32,000 bases of DNA, taken from Candidatus Peribacter riflensis (GTDB taxonomy: Bacteria > Patescibacteriota > Gracilibacteria > Peribacterales > Peribacteraceae). The stretch is taken from positions 1,080,001 to 1,112,000 of the forward strand of contig CP013062.1 of NCBI GenBank assembly GCA_001430755.1, in the 5' to 3' direction. The translations under genes and the position numbers were made by a program. This document shows positions 9,022-29,798 of this stretch, in pieces. The notes below the pieces were generated by a model. The model worked only from the letters and a program-made list of their open reading frames with translations, was not told the origin of the DNA and searched no databases. Position 1 is the stretch's first letter, and each line of letters starts with the position of its first letter.

Positions 9022-9780
9022 ATGTATGTTCCTGATTTGTCTTTAGCCATTCTTTTTGGGATTCTTGGTCTTGTGTTCGGGAGTTTCGGCACCGTGCTGA
9101 TCGCGCGTCTCCCGGCGGGGCAGCACATAGGCGGCCGGTCCCGCTGCCCCAGATGCAAGCACATGCTCGGGGTGGCTGAGCTCATCCCGCTCGTGAGCTA
9201 TTGCTTTCTCTCCGGGCGCTGTCGTCACTGTCGAAGATCCATTGGCGTGCTCTACCCGCTCATCGAGCTTGGGTCCGCACTTCTCTTCCTCCTTGCGCTG
9301 CTCCTCGTCAAAGAGGCGCTTTCTTCCCTCCTCCTCGCGCTTGCGCTCTGGTTGCTCCTGCTTATTGCCGTGATGGACGCGCGAACGCAGAGCATCCATG
9401 ACCTCCTCAATTTCTCTCTCATTGCGTTCGCCGTTGCCTATGCAGTGAGTGTGGGGAGCGTGCAGATTGCCGCCCCCCTTCTTCTCGGCGCGTTCTTTGG
9501 CGGGCAGTGGGTGCTCAGCCGGGGGCGGTGGGTGGGGAGCGGAGACATCCTCCTCGGTATCGGCGTCGGGTTTCTTCTGGGGGACTGGATGCGAGCCCTG
9601 CTCTGCCTCGGTCTGGCATACATCCTGGGGGCAATGGTGGCCTCGTACCTGCTTCTTCTCCATAAAGCCTCCCGCAAGAGCCACATTCCCTTCGGGCCGT
9701 TTCTGGCTGGAGCGGCCCTGCTCACGATCATGTTTGGAGATCGGATACTCGGCCTGCTTGTCCCAGGGTTCTTTCTCTAG
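9022..9780 (+). CDS. pilD: Prepilin peptidase (A24 family, PilD/ComC-like)
   Basis: CPRCKHMLGVAELIPLVSYCFLSGRCRHCRRSI (two CxxC pairs), a multi-TM body, and Asp motifs VMDARTQSI and GSGDILLG. Confidence 0.85.
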   Translation: MYVPDLSLAILFGILGLVFGSFGTVLIARLPAGQHIGGRSRCPRCKHMLGVAELIPLVSYCFLSGRCRHCRRSIGVLYPLIELGSALLFLLALLLVKEALSSLLLALALWLLLLIAVMDARTQSIHDLLNFSLIAFAVAYAVSVGSVQIAAPLLLGAFFGGQWVLSRGRWVGSGDILLGIGVGFLLGDWMRALLCLGLAYILGAMVASYLLLLHKASRKSHIPFGPFLAGAALLTIMFGDRILGLLVPGFFL

Positions 9781-11781: not shown

Positions 11782-12900
11782 TTACCGCCCGTCTTCTTTG
11801 GGCTCTTTCTCCTTTCTCTCTTCCCTCTCATGGTTCTCCTCTTCTCGAGAGGAAGAGGAGCGTATAGGGCTGGTGAAAAACATCTCGGATGACGATGCGG
11901 CGGAAGAGCGGGGCGGTGTTTCCTGTAGCAGGCGGAGGAGAGATCGTGCGGCATTCTCGCGCCGTTCTTTTCTTTCTCCCCCCGAGAGGATTTCGGATGT
12001 CTCTTCACTGGAGGAAGAAGCATGGCTGAATGCAGAAGAGGACGCGGCTGATGCCTCTTGCCGCTCCTCTTCATTTCGGGGAGGGGCGACTACCCTCCTC
12101 TCCTCTTTTTCTTCAAGTTTCTTTTCCATCCTCTCGCGATTCTGCTTTTCCTCTGCGCTGGAAGAGGAAGATGCGTCATCACGGTCGTTTTCATCGAGCT
12201 CATCGGCGGCGTCCTCCATGAGCGTTTTTAGTGTCTGGGGGATTCCAATGGCCGCCTGAACCTGCAGGAGCGATTTCTGATGTTGGGTGAGTTCCAGCAG
12301 GAGATCCCTGCGGATTGCCTTCCTCTCTTCAGCAGGAAGGCTGTGCAGATATTTCTGAAGGCTGACAGCGTTCTCTTCCATTTGAGAGCGGAGGGTCGCT
12401 CCCCGATCATCGGAATCCGATTCCTGGTCCAGGGTATTGGCCTCATCAAGCCTTCGTTCGATGGTCCGGATCGTCCACTGCGCACGTCTGGCGGAAGTGA
12501 TGGAAAGGCCGGAAATGACGGGTTCCGTAATATGCACCTTGATGGGATAGAGCAGGTCACCCGGCATCGAACCCTCTGCGGCGTACGCCATGCCTCCTCC
12601 GGCAAGCAAGACGATGCATGCAGAGACGAGCGTGGCGGCCAAAGGCCTGGAGAAGACAGAGAAGAGAGAGAGCCTCCGTTCCTCGAGGGGATTACTTCGC
12701 ATGAAGCTGAGGAGTTTCGCGCGGCCGATGGCCTTCTCATAATCGGTTAATCGGAGGGAGCCAGATGATGCCCGCAGCACATCAGAGGGCGCGAAACTCA
12801 TCGTATGTGCCGTGAGCGCGGCGCGCACCTGCGCGTGTTCCACGGGCGAGAGCGTGCAGGAGCGGGCGGCGGCCAGGAATGCGGTGACGCGCTTATCCAT
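11782..12900 (-). CDS. Putative membrane anti-sigma factor (DUF5667-like extracytoplasmic domain) with a highly charged low-complexity C-terminus
   Basis: Its start overlaps the sigma-factor stop by 8 nt (ATGGATAA). It has a short cytoplasmic N-terminus, the TM helix LAATLVSACIVLLAGGGMAYAA, then the PGDLLYPIKVHITEPV block that I associate with DUF5667. The last ~150 aa are E/R/S-rich. Confidence 0.5.
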   Translation of the reverse strand: MDKRVTAFLAAARSCTLSPVEHAQVRAALTAHTMSFAPSDVLRASSGSLRLTDYEKAIGRAKLLSFMRSNPLEERRLSLFSVFSRPLAATLVSACIVLLAGGGMAYAAEGSMPGDLLYPIKVHITEPVISGLSITSARRAQWTIRTIERRLDEANTLDQESDSDDRGATLRSQMEENAVSLQKYLHSLPAEERKAIRRDLLLELTQHQKSLLQVQAAIGIPQTLKTLMEDAADELDENDRDDASSSSSAEEKQNRERMEKKLEEKEERRVVAPPRNEEERQEASAASSSAFSHASSSSEETSEILSGGERKERRENAARSLLRLLQETPPRSSAASSSEMFFTSPIRSSSSREEENHEREERKEKEPKEDGR

Positions 12901-13393
12901 GAGGGCTTAAGAGGGACTGGAGCTTTTCGATGCCACGGTTCACGCGAACAGAAATCACATTGGGGGAGACATCAAGGAGCGCGGCGATCTCGCGCGGGGG
13001 GAGCCCATCAATAAAACGCAGAATGACGGCTGTCCGGTACGGCTCCTCGATGTTCTGAAATGCTTCAAGCACGAAACGCTCTTCGAATACCGCAGCGGGA
13101 CCTTTTTCGCGGCTGGGAGGGTTGAACCCCGTTTCCATCATCTCCTCCAGAGAGGAGGTGGGCCGGCGCTTTCTGCGACGGACCATATCAATGATGAGAT
13201 TGTTGGCGACACGGTAGAGGTAGGCGCGCATATTCCGGACGGTGATGCCGCCGACAATGGCCTCCCATGCGCGGATGAACGTATCCTGCATGAGGTCTTT
13301 GCCCTCTTCGCGGTCGCCGAGTCGCAGCGCGCAGTGGCGGAAAATCGCATCCGCGTAGCTGTCGTAGGCCTCCAGAAACTCCTGTTGGGTCAT
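12893..13393 (-). CDS. ECF-type RNA polymerase sigma factor (sigma-70 family)
   Basis: Region 2 GKDLMQDTFIRAWEAI...YLYRVANNLIIDMVRRR. Region 4 HTH PPREIAALLDVSPNVISVRVNRGIEKL. The track start at 13411 is a TTG, so I use the ATG at 13393 (MTQQEF). Confidence 0.85.
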   Translation of the reverse strand: MTQQEFLEAYDSYADAIFRHCALRLGDREEGKDLMQDTFIRAWEAIVGGITVRNMRAYLYRVANNLIIDMVRRRKRRPTSSLEEMMETGFNPPSREKGPAAVFEERFVLEAFQNIEEPYRTAVILRFIDGLPPREIAALLDVSPNVISVRVNRGIEKLQSLLSPHG

Positions 13394-13465
13394 CGAGAGG
13401 GTGGGTGACAAAGGGAAGACGCTCGCGAATGCCTATTCTTACACAGATCGACCCGAAAATAGCGA

Positions 13466-17531: not shown

Positions 17532-17675
17532 ACAGAGAGGGGAGAAAAGTGTACGAAAGCATCCCGCGCGGGGAACGAAGGCCTCGCCATCGCTCCGGGG
17601 ACGTCGCCAGAGAGCCTAGGGGTGGGGCTCCTATTCCGTCAACCGGGAGGCCCGGGAACCTGCCGTTCAGGAACT

Positions 17676-17704
17676 TTGCAGAAAGTGCCTTTCTGTGCTA
17701 TCAT
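17676..17704 (+). promoter_or_regulatory. Sigma-70-type promoter TTGCAG-N17-TATCAT (with TGc extended -10) for the response regulator
   Basis: -35 at 17676..17681, -10 at 17699..17704, 20 nt to the ATG at 17725. The segment is 25/32 identical to the histidine-kinase promoter/leader at 27486..27517. Confidence 0.5.
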
Positions 17705-17724
17705 ACATAGTCAGATACACAATT

Positions 17725-18183
17725 ATGCCCACACCCAAAAAACATGTTCCTGCGGGAGAACCGGGCCCGGAAAAGGCCGCTCCACCGGCAGCGGATACGG
17801 CCGCTCCCCCGGTGCAGAATTCGAACGGAAAACGCATCCTCATTGTGGAGGACGAGCGTCCGCTTGCGCATGCTCTGGAACTCAAATTCCACCATGAGGG
17901 CTTCGATACGCACATCTGTCTGGATGGCGAAGAGGCGCTCAAAGAGGCAACCGAAGGAACGTACAACGTCATTCTGCTCGATCTCATCATGCCGCGCATG
18001 GATGGCTTCACCTTTCTGCAGGAGATGAAGAGTCGCGGCGTGAAAACACCTACGGTCATTCTCAGCAACCTCGGACAAGACGAAGACCGTGCGCGCGCCC
18101 AGGAGCTGGGAGCGGTGGGGTACTACGTGAAATCCAATACGCCGATCATGGAGATCATCAAACAAGTGCAATCCCTTCTCTGA
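17725..18183 (+). CDS. Stand-alone receiver-domain response regulator (CheY-like, no output domain)
   Basis: ILIVEDE, phospho-acceptor context VILLDLIMPRMDG, VILSN, YYVKS. The track start at 17695 is a GTG, so I chose the ATG at 17725. The stop is 2 nt before the pilB start. Confidence 0.85.
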   Translation: MPTPKKHVPAGEPGPEKAAPPAADTAAPPVQNSNGKRILIVEDERPLAHALELKFHHEGFDTHICLDGEEALKEATEGTYNVILLDLIMPRMDGFTFLQEMKSRGVKTPTVILSNLGQDEDRARAQELGAVGYYVKSNTPIMEIIKQVQSLL

Positions 18184-18185
18184 CG

Positions 18186-20009
18186 ATGCCTCTTTCTGAC
18201 ACCGATCTCGGCCCCATCCTCGTCCAACAGAATTATCTTTCTGAGGAGGATCTGAAGCGCGTGACGGCGCTGGCCAAGGAGCGGAATCTCCCGCTTCTTT
18301 CGATTCTGTTCGAACAGGGGCTTCTCACACAGGATCTGTACGAGGGAGCCATAGCGGAACACTACAAACTTCCCTTCTTCGATCTACAGGCGCACCTGCC
18401 CTCGCCGGAAGTCATTGCGAAACTCCCCGAGGAAATTGCACAGGCCTACCACACCGTGGTGGCGGAATTCGCCACCGACCGCGCGACGATCGCGACATCG
18501 GAACCGGGACGGGAGAATCTGGAGGAGGTCATGCGGCTCAATCTGGGGCAGAAAGAACCGGTGGTGCCGCCCCAGGAAACCAAAGACAAATCAGGGGAGG
18601 GTGCAGAAGCACCTCAGCAGAAAAAGGTCGTGCAGCGCCTGCTCTCCATTGGAAAGAAAGAAGAGAAAGAGACCGCCCCACAACGGTTTGCCGGCACGAT
18701 CACCTTTGTCTACACCCCCCAGTCGGGCATCGACGCCGCATGCCAGCACTACCGCAAACCTCTCTCCACGCGTTTTCAGTCGATCATCCAGAACGAGAAA
18801 AAAGTCGCACCCGAAATTCTGGAAGAGATCATCAATGATGCCATTGAACTCAGAGCCTCGGACGTACACTTCGAGCCGCAGGAGAAAATCGTTGTCGTCC
18901 GTTTCCGCATCGATGGCGTGATGCACGAAGCGGGACGCATTCCCAAAGAGCATTACGAGGGCGTGGTGAACCGCATCAAGATTCAGGCGAATATGCGCAT
19001 CGACGAGCATTACGCGGCGCAAGACGGTGCCATTCGGTACTCCACTCCGCGCAATGCGTTGGATATCCGCGTCTCGATCGTTCCGCTCGTGGAGGGCGAA
19101 AAGGTGGTGATGCGTCTTCTCTCCTCCTACGTCCGATCCATCACCCTTCTCGATCTGGGTTTCTCGGTCAAAAATCAGGAGATTATCACCGATGCGGCCC
19201 ACAAGCCGTTCGGCATGTTGCTCACGACAGGGCCGACAGGATCGGGAAAGTCCACGACCCTCACGGCGCTCCTGAAGATGCGCAACACACCTGATGTGAA
19301 TATCTCCACCATCGAAGATCCGGTGGAGTACAAGATCCCCGGCGTGAACCACATTCAGGTGAATCCGAAAACCAATCTCACCTTTGCCTCCGGTCTGCGC
19401 GCACTCGTGCGCCAGGACCCGGATATCGTCCTCGTCGGAGAAATCCGTGACGGCGAAACGGCAGATATCTCGGTCAATGCCGCACTCACCGGTCACCTGG
19501 TGCTCTCCACCCTGCACAGTAACGATGCGGCTACGGCCATTCCGCGTCTGCTCGACATGGGCGTGGAGCCCTTCCTGCTCGCGTCCACGTTGGAGCTGGT
19601 GATTGGCCAGCGCCTCGTGCGTCGCGTGTGTCCGCGCTGCCGTCTGAGTGTGAGCGTGCCCATCGAAAAGGCACACACGCTTTTCCCCGGAGCGGACAAG
19701 ATGATTCCTGGGGGAAAGCCGCTCACTCTCTACCGTGGCAAGGGATGCGAAGCCTGCAGCTCTACGGGGTATCGCGGGCGTATCGGTATCTATGAGCTTC
19801 TGGTCATCACACCGAAGATCGAAGAACTCATTCTGCGCCGTGCCTCCAGCTCCGAGCTCAATGAAACCGCAGTGAAGGAGGGCATGCGTCTCATGTTCGA
19901 AGACGGTCTCGAGAAAGTGCTGGCCGGCGTGACGACGATTGAAGAACTGCTCCGCGTGGCGGCTCCGCCTGCCATTGTTCTCAACCCGTCGCATGGCCGA
20001 GACGAATAA
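18186..20009 (+). CDS. pilB: Type IV pilus / type II secretion assembly ATPase (PilB/GspE/ComGA family)
   Basis: N-terminal MshEN/GSPII-N-like domain, Walker A GPTGSGKSTT, Asp box DPDIVLVGEIRD, His box GHLVLSTLHSNDA, and a tetracysteine CPRC...CEAC. Confidence 0.9.
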   Translation: MPLSDTDLGPILVQQNYLSEEDLKRVTALAKERNLPLLSILFEQGLLTQDLYEGAIAEHYKLPFFDLQAHLPSPEVIAKLPEEIAQAYHTVVAEFATDRATIATSEPGRENLEEVMRLNLGQKEPVVPPQETKDKSGEGAEAPQQKKVVQRLLSIGKKEEKETAPQRFAGTITFVYTPQSGIDAACQHYRKPLSTRFQSIIQNEKKVAPEILEEIINDAIELRASDVHFEPQEKIVVVRFRIDGVMHEAGRIPKEHYEGVVNRIKIQANMRIDEHYAAQDGAIRYSTPRNALDIRVSIVPLVEGEKVVMRLLSSYVRSITLLDLGFSVKNQEIITDAAHKPFGMLLTTGPTGSGKSTTLTALLKMRNTPDVNISTIEDPVEYKIPGVNHIQVNPKTNLTFASGLRALVRQDPDIVLVGEIRDGETADISVNAALTGHLVLSTLHSNDAATAIPRLLDMGVEPFLLASTLELVIGQRLVRRVCPRCRLSVSVPIEKAHTLFPGADKMIPGGKPLTLYRGKGCEACSSTGYRGRIGIYELLVITPKIEELILRRASSSELNETAVKEGMRLMFEDGLEKVLAGVTTIEELLRVAAPPAIVLNPSHGRDE

Positions 20010-21198
20010 CACGCCTGCGGCCCAGCCCGTCACGCCCCCTCCAGCCACTGCGCCGGAGGCTGCTTTGCCTGAGATCACCCCAAAACAGCAGCCGTCGCGC
20101 TATGCCGCGCAGCGACAGGAGTTCCGCAAGTTTCTCTCCTCGCTGCAGCACCTGGGCATGGGCAAGCAGCGGATGGTGTTCATTCAGAGTATGTCGCTGA
20201 TGCTCACGGCCGGCCTTTCGCTGGTGGATGCCTTGAAAACACAACTTCTTGAAACCAGATCCAAGGCAGTGCGCACGCTCATTCAAAATATCATCACCGC
20301 AGTCGAATCGGGCTCGCCCCTGTGGAAGGCGATGGATGACCAGTCGTTGTTCTCCCCCTACGAAATCGCGCTCGTCCACATCGGCGAGGAGGGAGGCAAC
20401 TTGGCGCGCAATATGCAGTACCTCTCGGAGCAACAGGAGAAAGACCATGCTCTCAAACAGAAGGTGAAGATGGCGATGATCTATCCGTCGATCGTCGTGG
20501 TCCTTGTCTTCATTCTCATCATGGGGTTGGGACTCTTCGTGCTGCCGAATCTCGTGCAGGTGCTCTACTCGCTGCGGGTGGAGCTTCCGCTCGCCACGCG
20601 TGTCGTGATCGCGTTTTCGCAATTCTTTGAGGCGCACGGCGTGCTCGTAACGCCGCTGCTCATCTTTGCGCTCATTAACCTTTTCCTTCTCGGCAAATAC
20701 ACGCGGCTGCGTGTGGCTTCCCAGTGGCTGGTCTTTCATACCCCCGGCATCGGCAGTCTGGCGCGCGAAGCCACCATTGCGCAGTTCGGCGTGATCATGG
20801 GCGGGCTTCTGCGCGCAGGTGTTCCGTTGGTGGAGGCCCTGCATTCACTGGTGGAGGTGACGAACATTGTCGTCTATCACAACTTCTACGAGCGCCTGCT
20901 CGAACATGTGAATGCCGGCGATTCATTCAGCAAGAGCTTTGCCGCCCTGCCCGAGAGCAGCCATCTCCTCCCTATTTCGGTGCAGCAGCTCATCGTGACC
21001 GGCGAACGATCGGGGGCATTGGCCGAGGTGCTCATGAAGATCGCAGACATGTACGACAAGAAAGCCTCTGAGACGGCAGAGAGACTTCCGGTGATCCTGG
21101 AGCCACTTCTGCTCATTATCATCGGCGGCATCGTCGCAGGCATCGCATTTGCTATCATAGTCCCTATCTACAAAGTCGTCGGGAACATCGGTAACTGA
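19993..21198 (+). CDS. pilC: Type IV pilus platform protein (PilC/GspF/ComGB family)
   Basis: Two GspF-type repeats (SPYEIALVHIGEEGGNL and LPISVQQLIVTGERSGAL) and three TM segments. The track start at 19939 is a TTG. The ATG at 19993 (MAETNNT) overlaps the pilB end by 17 nt. Confidence 0.85.
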   Translation: MAETNNTPAAQPVTPPPATAPEAALPEITPKQQPSRYAAQRQEFRKFLSSLQHLGMGKQRMVFIQSMSLMLTAGLSLVDALKTQLLETRSKAVRTLIQNIITAVESGSPLWKAMDDQSLFSPYEIALVHIGEEGGNLARNMQYLSEQQEKDHALKQKVKMAMIYPSIVVVLVFILIMGLGLFVLPNLVQVLYSLRVELPLATRVVIAFSQFFEAHGVLVTPLLIFALINLFLLGKYTRLRVASQWLVFHTPGIGSLAREATIAQFGVIMGGLLRAGVPLVEALHSLVEVTNIVVYHNFYERLLEHVNAGDSFSKSFAALPESSHLLPISVQQLIVTGERSGALAEVLMKIADMYDKKASETAERLPVILEPLLLIIIGGIVAGIAFAIIVPIYKVVGNIGN

Positions 21199-21226
21199 TG
21201 TTTTCCCATTCCTTCCCCCCTTCCTC

Positions 21227-24106
21227 ATGTCGCACCGCGGGTTCACTGCAGTCGAAGTACTGCTCACGCTCGGCATCGTCGCAGTCACAGCCGGTATCAG
21301 CATGCCGCTCTATCGCACCTACCAACTCCGCAGCGAGTTGGATACTGCCATCGAGCAGGCCAAGCACGCCCTCGAGCGCGCCCAAGTGCTGGCACGGGCA
21401 GGGCAGAACGACTCTATGTGGGGCTATGCCACACAGGAGGGCATTCTCTTTCAGGGAGAGGCCTTCGCGATCCGCGAGCCCCAGTCGGATGAGGCGTACA
21501 TTGTGCCGGCCTCCGTAGAGGTCTTGGGCCTGACGGAGGTGGTCTTTCAGCGTGTAACCGGTGAGCCGTTAGTCGGCGGGGAGATCATCTTTCAGGCAGA
21601 CAACGGGGAATGGCGCACCATTACAGTGACAGAGGGGGGGTCGGTGGCTTCGAGTGAATTGTTTCCGCCAGAGAGCAGCTCGAGTAGCACCGTGGCCAGT
21701 GTGGGTGGGAGCAGTACATCTTCCGATATCAGCAGTACCGGCAGCGTTGGTTCGGGCGGCAGCAGTGCGGGCATGTCCGGAGGGTCCGAAGGCAGCACTG
21801 CCTCCGGAGGAGAGACGGGAGGGGGAGATACAGAGAGCTCCAGCAGCGCCGCAACCTGTGATGATGCGTTCACGCTCCTGCCCGATGGCACCATTGAGAC
21901 AACAGGGACGGTGGATGCCACCGTGAAAGTTCTCGGCTCGCAGGTGAGCGAAGGGGCGGGCGGCCCTGCCGCCAGGATCGTTGTATCGATGAGTACGGAT
22001 GAGGGTGATACGTGGGTTCCGCTCTTCGACGGACAAACCGTCCGTGGCGGAGAGGAAGATGTCGTCCAGAATCTCCCTTCGGGTACCAAGCTTCTCATCC
22101 GGGTCAACGGCCGGCACTCCTGGCTCTTCAACCGGACGTTCCTTTCTAATAATTCCGCGGGGCACATGCTGGCCCTGCGCAACGGGCACCGGCTTCCTGT
22201 CGGTTCCTATGACGCCTTCGGCAATCCTGCCGGACTCGCCTCTTTCCTTCGCGCGATCATTGAGGATGGCCGTATCAAGATCCATCCAAAATCCGTCGTC
22301 TTCCTCACAGAGCTCGATGCCCTCTGGAAAGGCGCCTCCAAGTTCCAGGATGCCGTCGTGCAGGTGACCTTTGCCGCAAAGCCCGGCAGCTGCGCGCAGG
22401 CCACCGATCCAAAAGTGAAGATCGTCTTCGACCGGCTCGAGAATCAGAACGCAGGCGATGTCCGTCCCCGGGTATACGTGGGCGAGCAGGGTATCCTCTT
22501 CGCGGAGGATCAGTGGATTCCCCTGTCGGTGGCGGGCGTGACGATGGCCGATTCCTCCCTTGTCGAGAATGTCCCCGGCATGGCTGTAGAACGCCGCAGC
22601 GGAGTATTGCGCGTGCTCCTGCATGGATCGCACATCATTCCATCCGGCAAGGAGCTCGTGGATGCACGCATCATCTTCGATCGTGCCGTCGTGACTTCCA
22701 TCGAGAATGACATGGGGGCCGATACCACCGAAAATCCCACCGACGGCGTCGTGAACGACGGCACGGGCGGGGATGAGGTGACCATTGCGGATGACCGCGG
22801 CTCGGTACGGTTCCAGACGCGCGTCACCAGCGCGGATGATGCCATCTTCATTCACTGGGCAATCGGCATGGCCAGTTCCAGCTCCAGTGCCGCTTCGGGG
22901 GCCAGTTCCGCAGCGTCGAGTCAGGCCTCTTCCGGATCTGCGCAGTCAGCGAGCAGTGAAGGGCAGACCGGCAGTGAGGGCGAAACCGGCAGCGAAGCGA
23001 GTGTCGCACCCGATGCCTGTGCCGCCGCATACACGATGGATGATCGGGGGCGCATGGTGCTCGGCGAGAAGGCCGATGTCTCGTTCACCGTTCTTGGATC
23101 CTATGCCACGTACGGTGCCAACGGTCCGATGATTCACGTGCGCCTGAATGCGAGTCTGGACGGAGGTGGCACGTGGCGCGGGCTCTTCAATTTCCGCGAT
23201 ATCATCACGGGCGACACGCAGACCATACGGGATGTTCCTTCGGGATCCGTACTCACCCTCTCGGCTGAGGGGCGTTACTCCTGGCTCTTCAAGCGTGTCG
23301 CGCGCATCGAAGATGACGGAGACCGCGTGCGCGTGCTCCGGCCCGGCTCGGTGGTCCCCGGCATCGGCTTGCTCTTGAACCCCATGCGCCTGAAGCCTTT
23401 CCTGCGGGAGCGCATTTCCGAAGGCAGAGTGCTCCTCACCGGCCGGCAGGTGCTGGCGCTTGTGGAGCTGCAGACACTGGATGACACGGCAGATTATCAG
23501 GATGCCGTGGTGCTGGTCACGATTGCGAAGCCGGTGAGCAGCGGCGGACCCTGTGCACAGGAAGATGCTGCGCTCAGCAGTCAGTCGAGCGTTCCTGCGG
23601 GAACGAGCAGTACTTCTTCCACTTCCTCGGTGGCAGGCCCGAGAATCACGATCTGTCACTTCACCAGCGCAGACCGGCTGCATCCAGCCACAATGGAAAT
23701 CAATGAATCTGCCTGGTCTGCGCACAGCGCGATCGGCGATCGTCTGGGTGCCTGTGAAGCCGACGAGGACGGTGACGGCATTCCGAATGCACAAGACTTC
23801 TGCTCCGGCACGTACCTGCCCGAGTCCGTACCGACCGAGTTCATGCTCTTCAACCGGTATGCCCTCACGGGGTCGAGCGGCGTGTTCCGCGAGGGGCCGC
23901 GCAAGAGGGTGAGTTCCTTCTCCCTCTCCGATACCCGCGGTTGCAGCTGCGAACAGCTTGTGGCGGTGGCCGAGGGCGAGCGGGATTACTACTTCCCGCA
24001 CGAGCCTCTGCTCCATCGGGAGCTCAAGAGCCTCTTCCCGTTCTATACGAACGGCGCACGGCAATTCGGTTGCGGGGCGGCGATCCTGCGCATGTCGCGG
24101 CCGTAA
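21227..24106 (+). CDS. Giant (959 aa) modular type IV pilin-like protein: prepilin N-terminus, three Ser/Gly linkers, two paralogous 181-aa Cys-bounded domains, Cys-rich C-terminal domain
   Basis: Class III signal MSHRG/FTAVEVLLTLGIVAV (Gly-1, Phe+1, Glu+5). The internal repeats are at 21857..22399 and 23018..23560. The C-terminal domain contains DEDGDGIPNAQD (TSP3-like Ca2+ motif) and ITICH...GDRLGAC. Confidence 0.75.
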   Translation: MSHRGFTAVEVLLTLGIVAVTAGISMPLYRTYQLRSELDTAIEQAKHALERAQVLARAGQNDSMWGYATQEGILFQGEAFAIREPQSDEAYIVPASVEVLGLTEVVFQRVTGEPLVGGEIIFQADNGEWRTITVTEGGSVASSELFPPESSSSSTVASVGGSSTSSDISSTGSVGSGGSSAGMSGGSEGSTASGGETGGGDTESSSSAATCDDAFTLLPDGTIETTGTVDATVKVLGSQVSEGAGGPAARIVVSMSTDEGDTWVPLFDGQTVRGGEEDVVQNLPSGTKLLIRVNGRHSWLFNRTFLSNNSAGHMLALRNGHRLPVGSYDAFGNPAGLASFLRAIIEDGRIKIHPKSVVFLTELDALWKGASKFQDAVVQVTFAAKPGSCAQATDPKVKIVFDRLENQNAGDVRPRVYVGEQGILFAEDQWIPLSVAGVTMADSSLVENVPGMAVERRSGVLRVLLHGSHIIPSGKELVDARIIFDRAVVTSIENDMGADTTENPTDGVVNDGTGGDEVTIADDRGSVRFQTRVTSADDAIFIHWAIGMASSSSSAASGASSAASSQASSGSAQSASSEGQTGSEGETGSEASVAPDACAAAYTMDDRGRMVLGEKADVSFTVLGSYATYGANGPMIHVRLNASLDGGGTWRGLFNFRDIITGDTQTIRDVPSGSVLTLSAEGRYSWLFKRVARIEDDGDRVRVLRPGSVVPGIGLLLNPMRLKPFLRERISEGRVLLTGRQVLALVELQTLDDTADYQDAVVLVTIAKPVSSGGPCAQEDAALSSQSSVPAGTSSTSSTSSVAGPRITICHFTSADRLHPATMEINESAWSAHSAIGDRLGACEADEDGDGIPNAQDFCSGTYLPESVPTEFMLFNRYALTGSSGVFREGPRKRVSSFSLSDTRGCSCEQLVAVAEGERDYYFPHEPLLHRELKSLFPFYTNGARQFGCGAAILRMSRP
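21857..22399 (+). repeat. Copy A of the intragenic 181-aa domain duplication (protein level) inside the giant pilin
   Basis: CDDAFT...KPGSCAQ. Aligned to copy B with no gaps over the first 114 positions, I count about 36 identities, including VLGS, GP, TW, LF, PSG, GR.SWLF.R. The end shares QDAVV.VT.AKP and CAQ. Confidence 0.8.
23018..23560 (+). repeat. Copy B of the intragenic 181-aa domain duplication
   Basis: CAAAYT...SSGGPCAQ. It has the same length as copy A and the same Cys...CAQ boundaries. Confidence 0.8.
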
Positions 24107-24132
24107 GTGTTATTCGTCACTTAAGAAAAGCG

Positions 24133-25725
24133 GTGTCACCCCGAGCACAGTCGAAGGGCGGCACCGCGTTTCTAGAGTTCGTTCCCCGGCGGAGTGTATC
24201 CCGAGCGAGTCGAAGGGCTCGGAATGACAAGCTCTCTGCGCTCCTTCAAAGAGCCTTCCCTGTATACTGCAGAACTGTTCCCTTCTCCTCCCGTCCGCGA
24301 TCCGGCTCGCTGCTGCTCGAAGCCCTGCTGGGCGTAGCCATCTTTGCGATTCTCGCGGGGGCGGTGAGCACGGTACTCTTCGTGGGGCAGGAAGGTGCAC
24401 TCAAGAGCGGAGACAGGATACGTGCGGTCTTTCTCGCTTCCGAGGCGCTGGCTGCCGCTCGCACAATGCGGGATGCCTCTTTCGATCAGCTCGTGGATGG
24501 GAAGCATGGGGTCTGTATCGGAGCAGCCGGAACATGGGAATTCTGCGGCCAGGAGAATGTGGCTGCAGATGGTTTCCGTACGACGCTCACTGTGCAGACG
24601 CTTGCCGAGAGTCACGTGCGCCTCTCTGCAGAGACGCGTTGGCAGGGGGGTGCCATAGGTTCCGGATCGGTTCTGATTGCCGAAGAGCTGACAGACTGGC
24701 GTGTGGTGAAGCCGATTGGCGACTGGGCGACCGTGCACGAGGAGGGCGGTTTCACCATCGAGGGCCAGCCGCTCTTCTCCGCGATCGCGCTCAACGATGG
24801 TGCCGCTTTCGTCGCCAGTGCGTACGGAGAGGGCGGTAAGGGGCTGCATGTCTTCTCGTACGCGGAGGGCGGCGATCCCCTGCCCATTGCGGCCGGATTC
24901 GATTTGGGTGTTGCCGCTTACGCGGTGCTGGTGGATGGGGATGTGCTGTATGTTGCGACCGCAGACACTTCTGCAGAAGTGCAGATCTTCGATGTGTCCG
25001 CACCGGCGGAATTCTCTATGACCAAGCGGCTCGCGACGATCAATGTGCCCGGAGACGGACGAGCACGGTCTCTCGCGTTCTTCAATAACACACTCTTCGT
25101 GGGTGCGACCGAGGACATTATAGAAGCCGAACTCTACGCATTCGATGTGGCGGATGCGGGGGATCCGGCTCTTCTGGATATTCTGGATGACACCGCCTCG
25201 TACTTCGGGCTTAGCCTGCACGAAGGGTTCGCCTATGTTGCGAGCTCTATGGATTCCATGGAACTGCGGGTCATCGACGTCTTCGATCCCGCCGATCTCT
25301 CCGTTGCAGTTGGCGAGGGGTACAACCTCACGGATGTGCAGGATGGGCTCGCCATGGCGACCGTCAACAGCGACGTGCTCATCGGCAGGCGCAGTGGAGA
25401 GGCCATTGAGGAACTCGTGCTTCTCGATGTGAGCAGTGGAGCGGTTCCTTCCCCGCCACCCGGTCCGTGGTATCAGGAAATGGGCGGGAGCGTTCCCGCT
25501 CTCACCGTGGAGCCGGGAGGACGCTACGCGTTCATCGCCACCGATAACATCGCCGCGCAATTGCAGGTGGCGGACCTGCAGGCCTTTCGTGCGGGTCAGT
25601 TCCCCATCATCTCCTCCGCGCTCACCTCGACCGGCGGAGGGCGGGCAGTCGCCTACGATGCACAGCGTGACCGCGTGCTCCTCGCCACGGATCGCGGAAT
25701 TCTCCTCTACCGTCCCGGTACATGA
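24133..25725 (+). CDS. Pseudopilin fused to an LVIVD-like beta-propeller repeat domain; start codon uncertain
   Basis: Prepilin-type segment RSG/SLLLEALLGVAIFAILAGAV (Glu+5) at 24295..24360. Four or more repeats of the type LYVA...EVQIFDVSAP, LFVG...ELYAFDVADAGDP, AYVA...ELRVIDVFDP, ELVLLDVSSG. The only in-frame ATG/GTG/TTG between the upstream stop and the cleavage motif is GTG 24133. Confidence 0.6.
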   Translation: MSPRAQSKGGTAFLEFVPRRSVSRASRRARNDKLSALLQRAFPVYCRTVPFSSRPRSGSLLLEALLGVAIFAILAGAVSTVLFVGQEGALKSGDRIRAVFLASEALAAARTMRDASFDQLVDGKHGVCIGAAGTWEFCGQENVAADGFRTTLTVQTLAESHVRLSAETRWQGGAIGSGSVLIAEELTDWRVVKPIGDWATVHEEGGFTIEGQPLFSAIALNDGAAFVASAYGEGGKGLHVFSYAEGGDPLPIAAGFDLGVAAYAVLVDGDVLYVATADTSAEVQIFDVSAPAEFSMTKRLATINVPGDGRARSLAFFNNTLFVGATEDIIEAELYAFDVADAGDPALLDILDDTASYFGLSLHEGFAYVASSMDSMELRVIDVFDPADLSVAVGEGYNLTDVQDGLAMATVNSDVLIGRRSGEAIEELVLLDVSSGAVPSPPPGPWYQEMGGSVPALTVEPGGRYAFIATDNIAAQLQVADLQAFRAGQFPIISSALTSTGGGRAVAYDAQRDRVLLATDRGILLYRPGT

Positions 25726-26144
25726 TGCAATTGCGCTCCCGATCCGGCTACGTTTTCCTCTTGAGCATTATCATGGTGGGTGCCATCGCTGTGGCGACAC
25801 TGGGATCCCTGCTCATGATCGGCGTCGGTTCCCTGCAGATCGGCGGAACCGTGCAGCAGTCGGAACAGGCGCGCTCGCTCGCTCAGACCTGTGCGGAACG
25901 CGCACTCCGGTCTTTGTGGGAAGATGGCGCCTATATCGGCTCCGAGGAATTCACCTTTGCAGAGGGGACCTGCGCGATCTGGCGCGTGGGGGGGTCGGGG
26001 AATGAGAATCGTTCCCTCTGTACTGAGGGCAATGTGGGGTCGACCGTACGGCGTTACGAGATCCTGCTCCAGCGTGTCCTCCCCTCCATTCAGGTCTATG
26101 CCTGGCGCGAGGTGGAGCAATTCACTGCCTGTGCTTTCGAATGA
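25722..26144 (+). CDS. PilX/ComGG-like minor pseudopilin (no Glu+5)
   Basis: MMQLRSRSG/YVFLLSIIMVGAIAVATLGSLL. 140 aa, four Cys. ATGA overlaps on both sides couple it to the neighbouring genes. Confidence 0.55.
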   Translation: MMQLRSRSGYVFLLSIIMVGAIAVATLGSLLMIGVGSLQIGGTVQQSEQARSLAQTCAERALRSLWEDGAYIGSEEFTFAEGTCAIWRVGGSGNENRSLCTEGNVGSTVRRYEILLQRVLPSIQVYAWREVEQFTACAFE

Positions 26145-26788
26145 TGCATTTCTCCCCTCAGCGCCGGCCGGGTACCACGCTCGTGGAGCTTCTGCTCTTC
26201 CTCGCCTTTTTCGCCGTGGTGGGGGGGACTGTTGTTTCCATTCTCTTCGCAACGAGCGACCAGCGTGCGCGCCAGCAGACCATCGTATCTGTGGAGCGTA
26301 CGGGACTCCAGATTCTCCAGAGCCTGCGTTGGCGCATCGAGCATGCCGAGCGCATTTTCGATCCCGCGAACGGGGCGACTGGGGCGATCCTCGCGCTGCA
26401 AATGGCATCAGAATCGGACCATCCTCTCATTGTGGGCCTCGAGGACGGTGCCTTGGTTCTGGTGCTGCGCGATACCAAGAAGACACTCACGACGGAGGGC
26501 ATGACTATTACACATTTCACGGTCCGCAATACCTCCCCCGCCAGCACACATCCGAGCGTTTTGATCTCATTCGACCTCACTCAGTCGTATCCGCTCCCTT
26601 CTGCTGCCGTTCCCGAGTACACCCGGAATTTCGAGATGCTCGTCTCGCTCCTTCCCAAAGACCACACAGTGGGTGACGACTGCGGCTGTGCAGCGCCATC
26701 ATGCCAGGGGGCCATCTATCAGTGGGAGATCTGTTCCGGGACCAGCTGTTCCGCAGCGCCGATCACTCTGCCGTGTCCTGCGCTGTAG
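26141..26788 (+). CDS. Minor pseudopilin with a Cys-rich C-terminus
   Basis: MMHFSPQRRPG/TTLVELLLFLAFFAVVGG (Gly-1, Glu+5). The last 40 aa contain 7 Cys (GDDCGCAAPSCQGAIYQWEICSGTSCSAAPITLPCPAL). Confidence 0.7.
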   Translation: MMHFSPQRRPGTTLVELLLFLAFFAVVGGTVVSILFATSDQRARQQTIVSVERTGLQILQSLRWRIEHAERIFDPANGATGAILALQMASESDHPLIVGLEDGALVLVLRDTKKTLTTEGMTITHFTVRNTSPASTHPSVLISFDLTQSYPLPSAAVPEYTRNFEMLVSLLPKDHTVGDDCGCAAPSCQGAIYQWEICSGTSCSAAPITLPCPAL

Positions 26789-26919
26789 CGATTGCAGACT
26801 CTTTTTTTTGACCGTCAATGCAATCGTCTCGTGCGGAGAGAAAAATTGTTACACTGTTGCGGAGCATTCAGAGTGGAGTGCTCCTCCTCTTCTTTTCTAT
26901 CTCTTCCCCATTTTCTTCT

Positions 26920-27366
26920 ATGAAACTTCGCCTCTCCCGAGCAGGGTTCACGCTCATTGAGCTCCTCCTCGTCATTGGGATCATCGCGATCCTCGCTTCC
27001 ATCGTCATCGTGGCCATCAACCCCACCAAGCAGATGGGTGATGCACGCAACGCACAGCGCCGCAGCGATGTGAACACCGTTCTGAACGCGGTTTATCAGT
27101 ACGCCATTGATAACAACGGCACCATGCCGGGCTGTCTGGCATCGGGTACCGGAGGAAATATCTGCGTGAAGGGCTCTTCCTGCACGGGTGTGACAGGTGG
27201 CTGCGACCTCGATTCACTCACCACGTCGTACATCGTGGATCTGCCCACAGATCCTTCTGGCGCAACGGGCAATGACACGAACTATGATGTTGCCATCACC
27301 AGCGGACGCGTAACGGTCTCGGCTCCCGAAGCCGAGCAGAGTCAGACCATCAGCGTGACACGCTAA
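26920..27366 (+). CDS. Type IV major pilin candidate (148 aa)
   Basis: MKLRLSRAG/FTLIELLLVIGIIAILASIVIVAINP is a textbook prepilin leader and N-methylation/cleavage motif. The globular part has 3 Cys. A strong terminator follows. The track start at 26818 adds 34 implausible residues. Confidence 0.85.
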   Translation: MKLRLSRAGFTLIELLLVIGIIAILASIVIVAINPTKQMGDARNAQRRSDVNTVLNAVYQYAIDNNGTMPGCLASGTGGNICVKGSSCTGVTGGCDLDSLTTSYIVDLPTDPSGATGNDTNYDVAITSGRVTVSAPEAEQSQTISVTR

Positions 27367-27390
27367 GGAGGAAGTCAGACTGTCCACTCG

Positions 27391-27434
27391 ACCCCGCATC
27401 TACTCTTTCAGGAAAGGGTGCGGGGTTTTCGTTT
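27391..27434 (+). terminator. Rho-independent terminator after the pilin gene
   Basis: accccgca (27391..27398) pairs with tgcggggt (27419..27426), followed by TTTTCGTTT. Confidence 0.7.
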
Positions 27435-27465
27435 GGAATGCGATAATTTGCGGGTGAATCGACCA

Positions 27466-27494
27466 TTGTGAGTATTATATAAATATGGTATAAT
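27466..27494 (+). promoter_or_regulatory. Sigma-70-type promoter TTGTGA-N17-TATAAT (TGg extended -10) for the histidine kinase
   Basis: -35 at 27466..27471, -10 at 27489..27494, 20 nt to the ATG at 27515. It sits in an AT-rich island and is homologous to 17694..17727. Confidence 0.55.
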
Positions 27495-27514
27495 CACTAT
27501 TCAGATACACAACT

Positions 27515-29089
27515 ATGCAGGCTCCCCTTGCTCCGCCCCGGCCGGACCCTCCGCGCACATCTGCACGTGGTGAAACGCAGCGGCGCACAGGATTCGGCAT
27601 GTCCATCTTCTGGCGCACCATGCGCCAGTTCGCGCTCCTTGCCACCTTCTCGGTCGTGCTCTTCTCGGGTGCGACGGCAATCGCCGCACGGCCGCTGCCG
27701 GCATTCCTGGGCTCGCTCTTTCTCCTGCTCGGAGTGCTGGTCTTCACGCTCGCGGTGGCGCTGGCGTACTTTCTCGCACGCGGGCTGACAGGCCCCATCG
27801 TCTCGCTCAGCCGCCGCGTGGCGCGCCTGGGGCCGGATCACTGGTCCTATCAGCCTGCAGAGAACACCACCGACGAAGTCGGCACGCTCGAAGCCGTGGT
27901 GGCGGATATGGCGCATCGTCTGGAGCGAGGCTATCTCTATCTGCAGGGTGAGGTGGAGAAGCGTACGGCGGAGCTCAAAGAGCAGTACCTCAAAGACCGG
28001 ACGATCCTCTCATCCATCCACCACGGAGTGATCGTCACCGATCCTCAGGGAAGGGTGATCGATGCCAATCCCGCAGCCGTGCAGATGATGGGGCAGAGTC
28101 GGCTCGAAGAAATCCACGGGCGTTCTGTTGTTGAGGTTCTTCGTCTCTCTCATCACCACCAGTTCCTCCCAGAGCAGGAACACCCTGTGATGCACTGTCT
28201 GAAGTCCCGCACCGAAGTCCGCCCGCACCCGCAGGAGCAGAGCAGCCTGGAGCGCCCCGATCACTCGCGCATTCCGGTCATGCTCATCGCCAGCCCCCTC
28301 CTCTCTGAAGATCAACTGCTCGGGGTGGTCGTGGTGTTCCACGACGTGACCGAGGAACGCAAACTGGACTACATGAAGTCCGAATTCATCTCTCTGGCTT
28401 CCCACCAGCTCCGTACACCCCTCTCGACGATCTCATGGTACGTGGAGCTTTTGCAGACGGATGACCGTGACAAGCTTACCGAGACGCAGAAGGCCTATGT
28501 GGACGAAATGCACGTCGCCGGCCAGCGTATGGCGCGCCTGATCGATGCCCTGTTGCATGTGTCCAGGCTGGAGGGCGGCGGGATCACGCCAATGAAGCAG
28601 AATGTCGATCTCGTCGCGTTGATCCGGGATGTAGCTGAAGACGAACGAGCGCTCGCGAAGGATCGCAAAATCAGCATGGAGCTTCGGCTGCCGTCCGGTC
28701 TGACCCTGGTCACGGATCCCACGCTGGTGCAGATCATTCTGCACAACATCATCAGCAACGCGGTGAAGTACTCCGAGGCGGGGGACTCCATCGGCATTTC
28801 CCTCTCGCAGACCGAGGAGACCGTGGCGGTCACGGTGCAGGATACGGGTGTGGGCATCCCTGAGAAGGAGCAGCGCTACCTCTTCACGCGTCTCTTCCGG
28901 GCTTCCAATGCGACGAAGGTGGATACGACGGGCAGCGGGCTCGGCCTCTACATTTCCCGCATGCTCGCAGAGCAGCTCAAAGGCAGAATTTCGTTCCTCA
29001 GTACCGAGGGGAAGGGAACGTCATTCATGCTGGAGCTGCCGTTGGAGAATCCAAAGAAGCCGGATGCCCCCTCGGCCGAGGGTTCCTGA
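27515..29089 (+). CDS. Membrane sensor histidine kinase (2 TM, HAMP-like, PAS, HisKA, HATPase_c)
   Basis: H-box SEFISLASHQLRTPLSTI, N-box IILHNIISNAVKYS, G1 VQDTGVGIPEKE, G2 GSGLGLYISR. PAS segment ILSSIHHGVIVTDPQGRVIDANPAA. Confidence 0.85.
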   Translation: MQAPLAPPRPDPPRTSARGETQRRTGFGMSIFWRTMRQFALLATFSVVLFSGATAIAARPLPAFLGSLFLLLGVLVFTLAVALAYFLARGLTGPIVSLSRRVARLGPDHWSYQPAENTTDEVGTLEAVVADMAHRLERGYLYLQGEVEKRTAELKEQYLKDRTILSSIHHGVIVTDPQGRVIDANPAAVQMMGQSRLEEIHGRSVVEVLRLSHHHQFLPEQEHPVMHCLKSRTEVRPHPQEQSSLERPDHSRIPVMLIASPLLSEDQLLGVVVVFHDVTEERKLDYMKSEFISLASHQLRTPLSTISWYVELLQTDDRDKLTETQKAYVDEMHVAGQRMARLIDALLHVSRLEGGGITPMKQNVDLVALIRDVAEDERALAKDRKISMELRLPSGLTLVTDPTLVQIILHNIISNAVKYSEAGDSIGISLSQTEETVAVTVQDTGVGIPEKEQRYLFTRLFRASNATKVDTTGSGLGLYISRMLAEQLKGRISFLSTEGKGTSFMLELPLENPKKPDAPSAEGS

Positions 29090-29112
29090 GGCACGGTCAT
29101 GAGCCCGGGGAG

Positions 29113-29555
29113 GACTTCCCCAAGGCTCATGATGATAGTTGGTCCCGCTCTTCTGTACGCCGGGTTCTGTTCCCCGCGTTATGGAACGCGGGGCGATGAT
29201 CATCTCTCTGGGACCCCGGTTACCCGGTGGCCTCGACCGCGGCCCGCAGATGCGGGACGGGTACTGTGCGGAGGAGTCGTCGGTACAGCGGAACCACTGC
29301 GTGATCCAGCGACCCAAACCCTCCTTGCTCCACCTAGAGTTTGCCAACCCCGTTTGCACGGGGCCTCGGTGCTCCGAGGCGTTTCACCCCCTTGCGGGAT
29401 CGTCTCTGTGGCACTGGTCCGTGCCCGCCTTTACCGAATATATGACGGGCAGGTGGGCGTTACCCACTAGGCGTTCCAATGGAGCCCGGACGTTCCTCTC
29501 AGGCTCCGCCCCTTACGGGGCTTCGCCGGAGCGATCATCCAAAGAGCAGGAAGTC
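29113..29555 (-). ncRNA. rnpB: RNase P RNA, bacterial type A
   Basis: The minus strand reads ...GAGAGGAACGTCCGGGCTCCATTGGAACGCCTAGTGGGTAACGCC... (compare E. coli GAGGAAAGTCCGGGCTCCATAGGGCAGGGTGCCAGGTAACGCC). It also has GGGTGAAACG, GCAAACTCTAGGTGGAGCAAGG and GAACAGAACCCGGCGTAC (compare ACAGAACCCGGCTTA). The ends pair as GGATGATCGCTC/GAGCG..ATCATC and GACTTCC/GGAAGTC. Boundaries are good to about +/-15 nt. Confidence 0.85.
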
Positions 29556-29723
29556 TTATTCTCGTCTTTGATTGCCTTTGAGACAAGGACTCCGTAGGAT
29601 TTTCTTTGTCTGATCTTTTTATAATATTTGTGGCGAAGGCGGGCTTTGCCCGCCTGGAGCCACTCCACTTAGGGAAAAGAGAGTTCATGAGAGAAAAACC
29701 GTAGGTTTGTCTCTCATGCCTAG

Positions 29724-29798
29724 GCCGCTTTAGCTCAGTGGTAGAGCAACTCACTTGTAATGAGTAGGTCCGGGGTTCAAATCCCCGAAGCGGCTCCA
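29724..29798 (+). tRNA. tRNA-Thr (anticodon UGU), CCA encoded
   Basis: Cloverleaf by hand: acceptor GCCGCTT/AAGCGGC, D arm GCTC-AGTGGTA-GAGC, anticodon arm ACTCA-CTTGTAA-TGAGT, T arm CGGGG-TTCAAAT-CCCCG, discriminator T, then CCA. Confidence 0.9.

Follow-up and report, generated by a model that had tools for sequence, protein, structure and literature searches.

A conserved type IV pilus operon with module-bearing minor pilins and a flanking two-component system in Candidatus Peribacter riflensis

Bacteria that belong to the candidate phyla radiation (CPR; also called Patescibacteria) make up a large share of bacterial diversity and seem to live attached to other microbes. Type IV pili (T4P) are the best candidate for finding and holding the host in these bacteria, and the control of CPR pili is an openly stated gap (PMC11623550, discussion). 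Here we describe a pilus locus of Candidatus Peribacter riflensis, a member of the Peregrinibacteria lineage of the CPR whose genomes were reported in PMC4736985. The locus lies at positions 17725 to 29089 of the window, the stretch of 32,000 nucleotides that was analyzed (contig CP013062.1, 1,080,001 to 1,112,000). It encodes a receiver-only response regulator (RR), the extension ATPase PilB, the platform protein PilC, five pilins and a sensor histidine kinase (HK). We consider it probable that its product is an adhesive and probably multifunctional pilus, the assembly of which is gated after translation by this dedicated two-component system.

The closest described pili are those of Nanosynbacter lyticus TM7x, which has two T4P systems with minor pilins that carry C-terminal domains (PMC11623550, PMC12206443). 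The propeller-bearing minor pilin PilX2 is needed for host binding, and not for filament extrusion or transformation (PMC11623550/PMC12206443). Like the Peribacter locus, T4P-1 and T4P-2 of TM7x belong to a CPR bacterium and combine type IVa pilus (T4aP)-like PilB and PilC, no secretin, about four minor pilins and a small major pilin. As far as the two can be likened by description, they also share minor pilins with accessory domains, one of them a 7-bladed beta-propeller, and a high content of Gly, Ala, Ser and Thr. The TM7x loci differ in that they include PilM, PilN and PilO, T4P-1 has PilT and PilD, the TM7x pilins are encoded at another locus than PilB2/PilC2, the propeller is built of RCC1 repeats, and no RR or HK is mentioned. 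In P. riflensis, a single operon has the RR at its head and the HK at its close, PilM/N/O were not found, the propeller is of the LVIVD type, and a second pilin carries a multi-module extension of about 800 amino acids. Across the CPR, PilB, PilC, PilD and pilins are enriched, PilQ is absent and PilM/N/O are widespread (PMC6744442). The present locus agrees with this description in PilB, PilC, PilD, the pilins and the lack of PilQ, and in having Cys-containing pilins, which need disulfide formation. It departs from it in that PilM/N/O and PilT are co-localized in the PMC6744442 description, which does not mention a two-component system or module-bearing minor pilins.

The first-pass annotation of the window did not recognize this composition as a described system. 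For the kind of pilus this does not hold, since CPR pili and minor pilins with propellers or other C-terminal domains have been published for Saccharibacteria; it appears to hold for the conserved coupling of the RR to pilB and of the HK to the locus. A literature search on RRs and PilB in CPR pilus operons found nothing relevant, and neither the TM7x work (PMC11623550/PMC12206443) nor a review of PilB cofactors (PMC11656802) mentions an RR or kinase embedded in a CPR pilus operon. What we did not find described in the literature is that the RR and pilB are coupled in a conserved way, together with a kinase encoded in the operon, in a machine with no detectable PilM/N/O. The pilus, with its module-bearing pilins, is in line with recent descriptions of CPR biology, and the locus extends a known system without overturning current views.

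Open reading frame (ORF) listing and family scans gave nine genes in the order RR, PilB, PilC, 959-aa pilin, LVIVD pilin, 140-aa pilin, 215-aa pilin, major pilin and HK. The order and the coordinates agree with the first-pass annotation, as do the junctions: ATGA overlaps at 25722 and 26141, a 17-nt overlap of pilB and pilC, and a 2-nt gap between the RR gene and pilB. All features of the locus given below are on the + strand. Statements on the whole genome rest on the annotation table (KEGG labels) in the supplement of PMC4736985 for genome CP013064.1 (GCA_001430845.1, 1.248 Mb). The window sequence is identical to CP013064.1, and its position 1 corresponds to position 1080087 there. The table lists one PilB and one PilC, both from this locus, together with an orphan 373-aa GspE-like ATPase and two further GspG-like pilin genes. 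By this table, the genome has no other PilB-PilC operon for pilus assembly than this one, which is type IVa-like.

The arrangement is conserved in related genomes. A PilB probe gave 80 loci, one genome per species, in which every ORF was compared with the window proteins. In eight Peribacteria loci (L003-L010, PilB identity 61-83%), the order RR, PilB, PilC, GspH-like pilin, propeller pilin, 140-aa pilin, 215-aa pilin, major pilin(s) and HK is kept as far as the fetched DNA reaches, so that the genes of the large pilins are syntenic with pilBC. The fetched DNA stops before any HK in L010 and before the 215-aa gene, the pilin and the HK in L007; the 140-aa gene was not detected in L008. The RR and HK flank the cluster in all six Peribacteria loci that are long enough for both (PilB identity down to 63%), and the RR upstream of pilB is kept in all Peribacteria loci, with PilB identity down to 50%. 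The set is shared, with variations, by Uhrbacteria, Nealsonbacteria, Daviesbacteria, Magasanikibacteria, Moraniibacteria, Paceibacterota, Saccharimonadales and further CPR lineages. Synteny of the RR and HK with pilBC is found in every Peribacteria relative where it can be checked and in other CPR phyla, which bears out the earlier description of a locus bracketed by its own two-component system. The prepilin peptidase PilD (9022..9780, +; A24_N_bact, PF06750, 2.6e-26, and Peptidase_A24, PF01478) is located 7.9 kb upstream of the locus, in agreement with the distance of 8 kb first given. It lies 4-8 kb upstream of pilB in 7/8 full-length Peribacteria loci (L003-L009) and was not detected in L010. 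The last two minor pilin genes are ordered 140 then 215 in Peribacteria (L003-L010) and 215 then 140 in other CPR phyla (L013-L030). Outside Peribacteria, additional RRs occur in some loci, no HK or pilin is seen in several, and no RR is found upstream of pilB in L013, L021 and L024.

Of the 67 loci with a full PilB, 23 have an RR gene at a distance of -1 to +190 nt from pilB; in 9 of these the distance is no more than 4 nt. The PilB-adjacent RRs form one clade in a neighbor-joining tree. The RR of L024, which is located after the HK, falls inside this clade, and the RR of L013, also after an HK, is its sister. The adjacency of such related RRs to an HK hints that the RR and HK are partners. 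A single clade is also formed by the PilBs that are linked to an RR; the RR is co-inherited with this clade, which stands apart from the PilB-PilT-PilC-PilD-pilins type and from the PilB-PilC-pilin type of Saccharibacteria. Because the arrangement recurs in related genomes, it is not due to chance. The RR and HK could be taken for unrelated neighbors that happen to flank the pilus genes, given that they are 9 kb apart and that the HK is a separate transcription unit. Synteny contradicts this: the flanking order is conserved in six Peribacteria loci, the association with the PilB clade spans CPR phyla, and the RR directly follows the HK in some phyla. Unrelated neighbors are scarcely credible on this evidence.

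A second common type of CPR pilus locus was also observed. It consists of PilB, a short PilT-like ATPase, PilC, PilD and several pilins, with an adjacent RR in none of its members (L035, L038, L042, L047, L051-L054, L056, L060, L062, L069, L073, L074, L079 and L082). Several of the metagenome-assembled genomes with this type are labeled 'Gammaproteobacteria', yet their PilB clusters with CPR sequences.

The RR (17725..18183; Response_reg, E 5e-21) has 152 amino acids and consists of a Pro/Ala-rich N-terminal tail of 35 residues and a receiver domain only. Its stop codon lies 2 nt 5' of the pilB ATG. The phospho-acceptor D86, together with D43, S114 and K136, is invariant in 24 RR orthologues. 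A further patch, P90, G94, F95, L98, N115, L116, Q118 and D121, is conserved specifically in this family and is a candidate output surface as judged from sequence. Receiver-domain proteins exert post-translational control of T4P extension in PilG/PilH (Pil-Chp), cyanobacterial PATAN-REC proteins that bind PilB1, and FimX-PilZ-PilB, and some of them bind PilB (PMC11656802; bioRxiv 10.1101/2021.06.11.447907). These controllers use CheA-type kinases with methyl-accepting chemotaxis proteins (MCPs), or degenerate receiver (REC) domains and cyclic di-GMP (c-di-GMP), and their genes are not coupled in register to pilB. In contrast, the locus studied here brings a plain REC domain with an intact phospho-site, a classical HisKA PAS kinase and pilB together in one conserved operon.

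The sensor HK (524 aa, 27515..29089) has the domain order HAMP-PAS-HisKA-HATPase_c, with HisKA at 9.6e-18 and HATPase_c at 8.7e-27. Two transmembrane helices enclose an outer loop of about 6 residues. As there is almost no extracellular loop, the HK probably senses a cytoplasmic or membrane cue. The HKs of Peribacteria are full-length orthologues. Those of other phyla share the PAS/kinase core only and range from 250 to 1080 aa; these differences in size and domains between phyla suggest lineage-specific inputs. Phosphotransfer from this HK to the RR as its cognate partner would be consistent with their co-inheritance and with the HK-RR adjacency in L013 and L024.

The two best promoter-like sites of the region precede the RR gene (17675..17704, TTTGCA-18-TATCAT with TG) and the HK gene (27466..27494, TTGTGA-17-TATAAT, 10/12), each ending 21 nt before the ATG. 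An extended -10 box is found before both genes in 3/6 relatives checked. An identical 12-mer, TCAGATACACAA, lies at 17711-17722 and 27501-27512, 3 nt before the ATG of the RR and HK genes, and nowhere else in the window; its number of near-matches was reached by 0/100 shuffles. We do not claim the 12-mer as an operator, and relatives do not have it in exact form. An intrinsic terminator (27391..27434) follows the major pilin gene as a hairpin and U-run (dG -27.9 kcal/mol, z -2.47, then UUUUCGUUU). From these signals, one long transcript is likely to run from the RR gene to the major pilin gene and to end at the terminator, with a separate transcript for the HK.

An HK/RR pair beside pilus genes is also known from PilS-PilR, which adjoins pilA, pilB and pilC in Geobacter and Myxococcus. 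PilR, unlike the RR here, is an NtrC-type sigma-54 activator with AAA+ and helix-turn-helix (HTH) domains. Control of the PilS-PilR type was ruled out on domain content, as the 152-aa RR has no sigma-54 AAA+ or HTH domain. Pil-Chp control was ruled out in the same way: the HK is of the HAMP-PAS-HisKA-HATPase type, and no CheA, CheW or MCP domains were found in the window. The RR might still act as a phosphate sink, or be one step of a relay by which transcription of the pilin genes is finally controlled, as it is by PilS-PilR, with no contact to the motor. Many single-domain RRs are sinks, the genome has other RRs and HKs, the HK and RR genes have their own, similar promoters, and in L013 and L024 the RR follows the HK and does not abut pilB. 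Against this stand the lack of a DNA-binding or sigma-54 domain in the RR, the fact that an Hpt (histidine phosphotransfer) protein or DNA-binding RR is seen in none of the syntenic loci, the tight translational coupling to pilB that is kept across phyla, and the RR clade that tracks the PilB clade. A sink or relay role is rather unlikely in the light of these points. Direct switching of the motor by the RR is the role that we infer, because its translation is coupled to that of PilB and it contains no DNA-binding domain.

PilB (607 aa, 18186..20009) consists of a T2SSE core (PF00437, E 1.9e-121) and an MshEN-like N-domain. Its best match of all models is TIGR02538 (PilB) at 491 bits, yet this is under the equivalog cut-off of 675. 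PilC (401 aa, 19993..21198) matches T2SSF (PF00482) in two stretches with E 4.5e-50 and scores 184-212 bits with T4aP/type II secretion system (T2SS) platform models. A Lys/Glu/Pro-rich low-complexity insert at residues ~120-175 of PilB lies between the N-domain and the ATPase core. The N-domain (18186-18400) reaches 25 bits with the MshE-type c-di-GMP-motif model, which has a cut-off of 38, and c-di-GMP input to PilB is not claimed. The key Arg and Gln positions of this motif do not seem to be kept in this PilB.

The locus had been called comG-like at first pass. The ComG operon of Firmicutes is similarly of a monoderm type without a secretin and encodes an ATPase, a platform protein and five pilins without PilMNO, and in gene content the comparison stands. 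It fails for the protein families. PilB scores 245.6 bits against ComGA (cut-off 300) and PilC 129.8 bits against ComGB (cut-off 240), far below their scores on T4aP/T2SS models, and the MshEN-type N-domain of PilB sets it apart. Unlike ComG, the locus has an ATPase and platform closer to PilB/GspE and PilC/GspF, an MshEN-like N-domain, much larger pilins and an embedded two-component system. The filament could nevertheless serve chiefly in competence, as a DNA-uptake pseudopilus like that of Gram-positive ComG systems, with accessory domains that capture DNA and not cells. In gene content the locus is like comG, as it encodes an ATPase, a platform protein and five pilins but not PilMNOPQ, ComEC and DprA are in the genome table, and CPR bacteria depend on scavenged nucleotides and DNA (PMC6744442). 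We judge this unlikely. PilB and PilC remain under the ComG cut-offs (246 and 130 bits, vs 491 and 184-212 bits for the T4aP/T2SS models), ComGA does not have the N-terminal domain found in PilB, the propeller and beta-sandwich modules resemble parts of adhesins or lectins, and the TM7x propeller-pilin system affected host binding, not transformation (PMC11623550/PMC12206443). Adhesion and DNA uptake are not mutually exclusive, because the genome has a single PilB/PilC.

The description of a secretin-less type IV pilus locus is also borne out. Family scans of the window proteins found no PilM, PilN, PilO, PilQ or PilT, as the first-pass annotation had stated in claiming that no PilM/N/O/P/Q, secretin or PilT occurs in the window. 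In the genome table, K02662 (PilM) and K02666 (PilQ) are absent at the level of KEGG annotation, and matches to PilN/PilO are insignificant, with the limit that divergent homologues may have been missed. A missing secretin is expected, because the CPR envelope has no outer membrane (PMC6744442). For PilT the picture outside the window is different: the genome table gives it as gene 77 (74260-75279, 340 aa, K02669, E 4.4e-142). In the 8 kb of CP013064.1 after this orphan PilT (genes 77-83), there are genes for two HKs and a weakly GspG-like pilin, which may form a second small neighborhood related to pili.

These data also bear on a T2SS-like pseudopilus that pushes proteins through the wall or S-layer. 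GspE, GspF, GspG and GspH models match, the KEGG labels include fimU and gspI, and the minor pilin quartet resembles GspHIJK; PMC4736985, which mentions type IV pili and twitching genes, also uses the label 'type II secretion system'. No GspD or GspC/L/M domains were found in the window, and the sole entry of this kind in the genome table is a weak gspM label given to an HK. CPR cells have no outer membrane that would need to be crossed (PMC6744442), the genome encodes a PilT, pili have been observed in the CPR, and adhesin-like modules make sense on an exposed filament. Together these points make a secretion function very improbable.

The pilins carry the signals for export and assembly as follows. 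A regular-expression scan for the class III signal motif, which has Gly at -1 and Glu at +5, found it in the 959-aa, LVIVD, 215-aa and major pilins and nowhere else in the window. Gly/Ala/Ser/Thr make up 33-39% of all five pilins, vs 26-28% of the RR, PilB, PilC and HK. A high content of these residues is the criterion for exposed pilins in PMC11623550. Four minor pilins encoded together, one of them without Glu5 and the first GspH/FimU-like, are also found in GspH-I-J-K of T2SS and in FimU-PilV-W-X with PilY1 of T4aP. Sequence similarity of GspI/J/K or PilV/W/X to the minor pilins here is not detectable.

Minor pilin 1 (959 aa, 21227..24106; MSHRG↓FTAVE, N_methyl/TIGR02532) begins with a GspH/FimU-like pilin domain at residues 8-145, and the N-terminal 145 residues model as a pilin. 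Matches of the N-terminus to GspH/FimU types are weak (PRK10506 1.6e-4; KEGG fimU 1.4e-7 in the genome table), and homologues are named 'GspH family'. Ser/Gly-rich disordered linkers connect the pilin domain to domain A (208-392), domain B (393-548), a second A (596-776) and a Cys-rich C-terminal domain (806-959) with a thrombospondin-type-3 (TSP3-like) Ca-binding motif. The two A copies are 34% identical, and a conserved Cys pair brackets each. These domains are modeled with a predicted local distance difference test (pLDDT) score of ~85-92. The long form is confined to Peribacteraceae (26 homologues). Other Peribacteria have versions of 270-850 aa, and other CPR phyla have mostly the ~145-aa pilin domain alone, with longer forms in a few loci. 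An exhaustive search with A and B gave 282 clusters. In these, A or B is found singly, in other proteins with a fused pilin (one with N_methyl) or in giant surface proteins. The latter also carry immunoglobulin-like, cadherin-like, laminin-G/concanavalin A-like, TSP3 and MopE motifs. The A/B domains are shuffled extracellular modules, and they may be adhesive. Foldseek matches to the 959-aa model were weak and generic, of a beta-sandwich, C2 or lectin-like kind, and a confident functional analogue was not found. Relaxed Pfam scans of the separate 959-aa domains and of the 140-aa and 215-aa pilins found only N_methyl and one TSP3 repeat.

Minor pilin 2, the LVIVD or propeller pilin (24133..25725; RSG↓SLLLE, G(-1) codon at 24304), was modeled by AlphaFold from 32 sequences with a pLDDT of 88.9. 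The model has an alpha1 helix (10-67), a four-stranded pilin sheet (75-139) and a 7-bladed beta-propeller (149-481). In the PDB the propeller resembles WD40-type propellers with a TM-score of up to 0.82, and no functional analogue, PilY1 included, stood out in this structure search. The C-domain of PilY1 is also a beta-propeller at the presumed tip; in the present case the propeller is fused to a pilin and is not a separate protein. There are 56 homologues of the propeller pilin, nearly all from Peribacteria or Peregrinibacteria, that keep the N-terminus RxG↓(S/F/Y)LLLEAL, and homologues also occur in environmental Saccharimonadales loci (L021, L026). The earlier claim that two accessory pilins carry large non-pilin domains is confirmed for minor pilins 1 and 2, both of which have a prepilin motif at the N-terminus, a pilin-fold N-domain and large extra domains. 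The adhesive role proposed for these domains is plausible in view of the propeller fold and the recurrence of A/B in giant surface proteins.

The start of the propeller pilin gene is unusual. GTG 24133 is its sole canonical start in frame, and the leader from there has 58 aa and runs across two REP-like (repetitive extragenic palindrome-like) repeats. The propeller-pilin gene of L003 has no canonical start at all and a leader conserved in frame, and distant relatives have ATG and leaders of 6-20 residues. The spacer 5' of the gene (24107..24303) contains the two REP-like copies, a hairpin and the GTG. Within 24104-24303, the copies GTGTCACCCCGAGCACAGTCGAAGGGC and GTGTATCCCGAGCGAGTCGAAGGGC end in AGTCGAAGGGC; they translate to 'PERVEG'-type peptides that are seen in the annotated N-termini of some homologues. 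A GC-rich hairpin directly follows the stop codon of the 959-aa gene, and the spacer as a whole (24104-24310) folds no better than shuffles (z -1.16).

Minor pilin 3 (140 aa, 25722..26144; RSG↓YVFLL) has a hydrophobic N-terminus and no Glu at +5, and Glu is found at this position in no member of the family. C57, C84 and W128 are invariant across CPR phyla. A pilin without Glu5 is a hallmark of the tip-most subunit of the GspK/PilX type, and by analogy minor pilin 3 is probably this subunit. Minor pilin 4 (215 aa, 26141..26788; RPG↓TTLVE) ends in a tail with 6 Cys. This tail and an extra Cys pair of the 140-aa pilin occur only in Peribacteria. When profiles of the 140-aa and 215-aa families were searched against PDB, they matched the pilin alpha1 helix only, or nothing, and assignment to GspI/J/K or PilV/W/X therefore stays an analogy. 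The major pilin (148 aa, 26920..27366; MKLRLSRAG↓FTLIE, N_methyl 1.9e-6, TIGR02532) has a 9-aa leader and 4 Cys. It is 95% identical to that of the closest relative, L003, and the minor pilins are 69-75% identical.

The following model of the pilus is proposed. PilD would process the subunits, and PilB would power polymerization on the PilC platform. By analogy with GspH-K or FimU-PilVWX, the four minor pilins would prime assembly and end at the filament tip, behind which PilB would extend a shaft of the 148-aa major pilin. The propeller and the modular 959-aa protein, presented at the tip, may act as adhesins for a partner cell or surface, with a ligand that is probably a glycan or protein. 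The membrane PAS kinase, expressed from its own promoter, would phosphorylate the receiver-only RR, which is produced together with PilB and would most likely act directly on PilB or PilC and switch assembly on or off. The orphan PilT could retract the filament. The same filament may also serve DNA uptake, since ComEC and DprA are present.

Several points weigh against this model. The contact between the RR and PilB is a conjecture from sequence data. In L013 and L024 the RR is not beside pilB. Other HKs and receiver-only RRs are present in the genome (several of each in the table), and hence cross-talk is possible. PilM/N/O were not found in the KEGG-based table though they are common in CPR pili; either the machinery differs or divergent homologues were missed. 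A normal start codon is absent from the propeller pilin gene here and in the closest relative. Finally, the models of the accessory domains yield only generic folds in structure searches.

A wider reading is that the receiver-only RR is an ancient, dedicated and phosphorylation-dependent PilB cofactor across the CPR. Co-translated with PilB, it would be phosphorylated by a sensor kinase from the same operon, whose input domains differ by lineage, and gate assembly directly, replacing in these minimal cells the role of PilM/N/O, c-di-GMP or Chp-type control. This reading is tentative, and we lean against it. If true, an ultrasmall episymbiont would have in it a simple switch from signal to appendage, which sets the time at which the host-binding pilus is deployed. 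The RR-PilB-...-HK operon is in any case a concrete and testable regulatory circuit with a named conserved RR surface. The module-bearing tip pilins are candidate host-range determinants, and the locus illustrates that a functional-looking pilus operon can be without PilM/N/O.

Other genes of the window were noted beside the locus. Upstream, between RNase J and the PilD neighborhood, a 649-aa protein (5782-7731, +) has a central transmembrane helix and no Pfam family match. A PilM-like role was considered for this membrane protein, and family support for it was not found. Just 5' of PilD, a Ser-rich protein of 202 aa (8374-8982, +) ends in LPSSG, a hydrophobic stretch and the basic tail HRKQKAR. 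By sequence, this C-terminus looks like a sortase (LPXTG-type) cell-wall sorting signal, and the table of PMC4736985 lists two sortases in the genome. A Ser-rich exported protein of 177 aa is encoded at 11192-11725. Next after an ECF-type (extracytoplasmic function) sigma factor (12893-13411, -) comes a membrane protein of 372 aa, likely an anti-sigma factor, whose tail is very rich in Ser and Glu; the pair spans 11782-13411.

Directly downstream of the HK gene lies the RNase P RNA of bacterial class A (29140-29550, -), found at full length with 147 bits. Because of this RNA, the ORFs 29099-29470 and 29139-29597 and a 138-aa gene of the NCBI record are probably spurious. A tRNA-Thr (TGT) gene is located beside the RNase P RNA at 29724-29798 (+).

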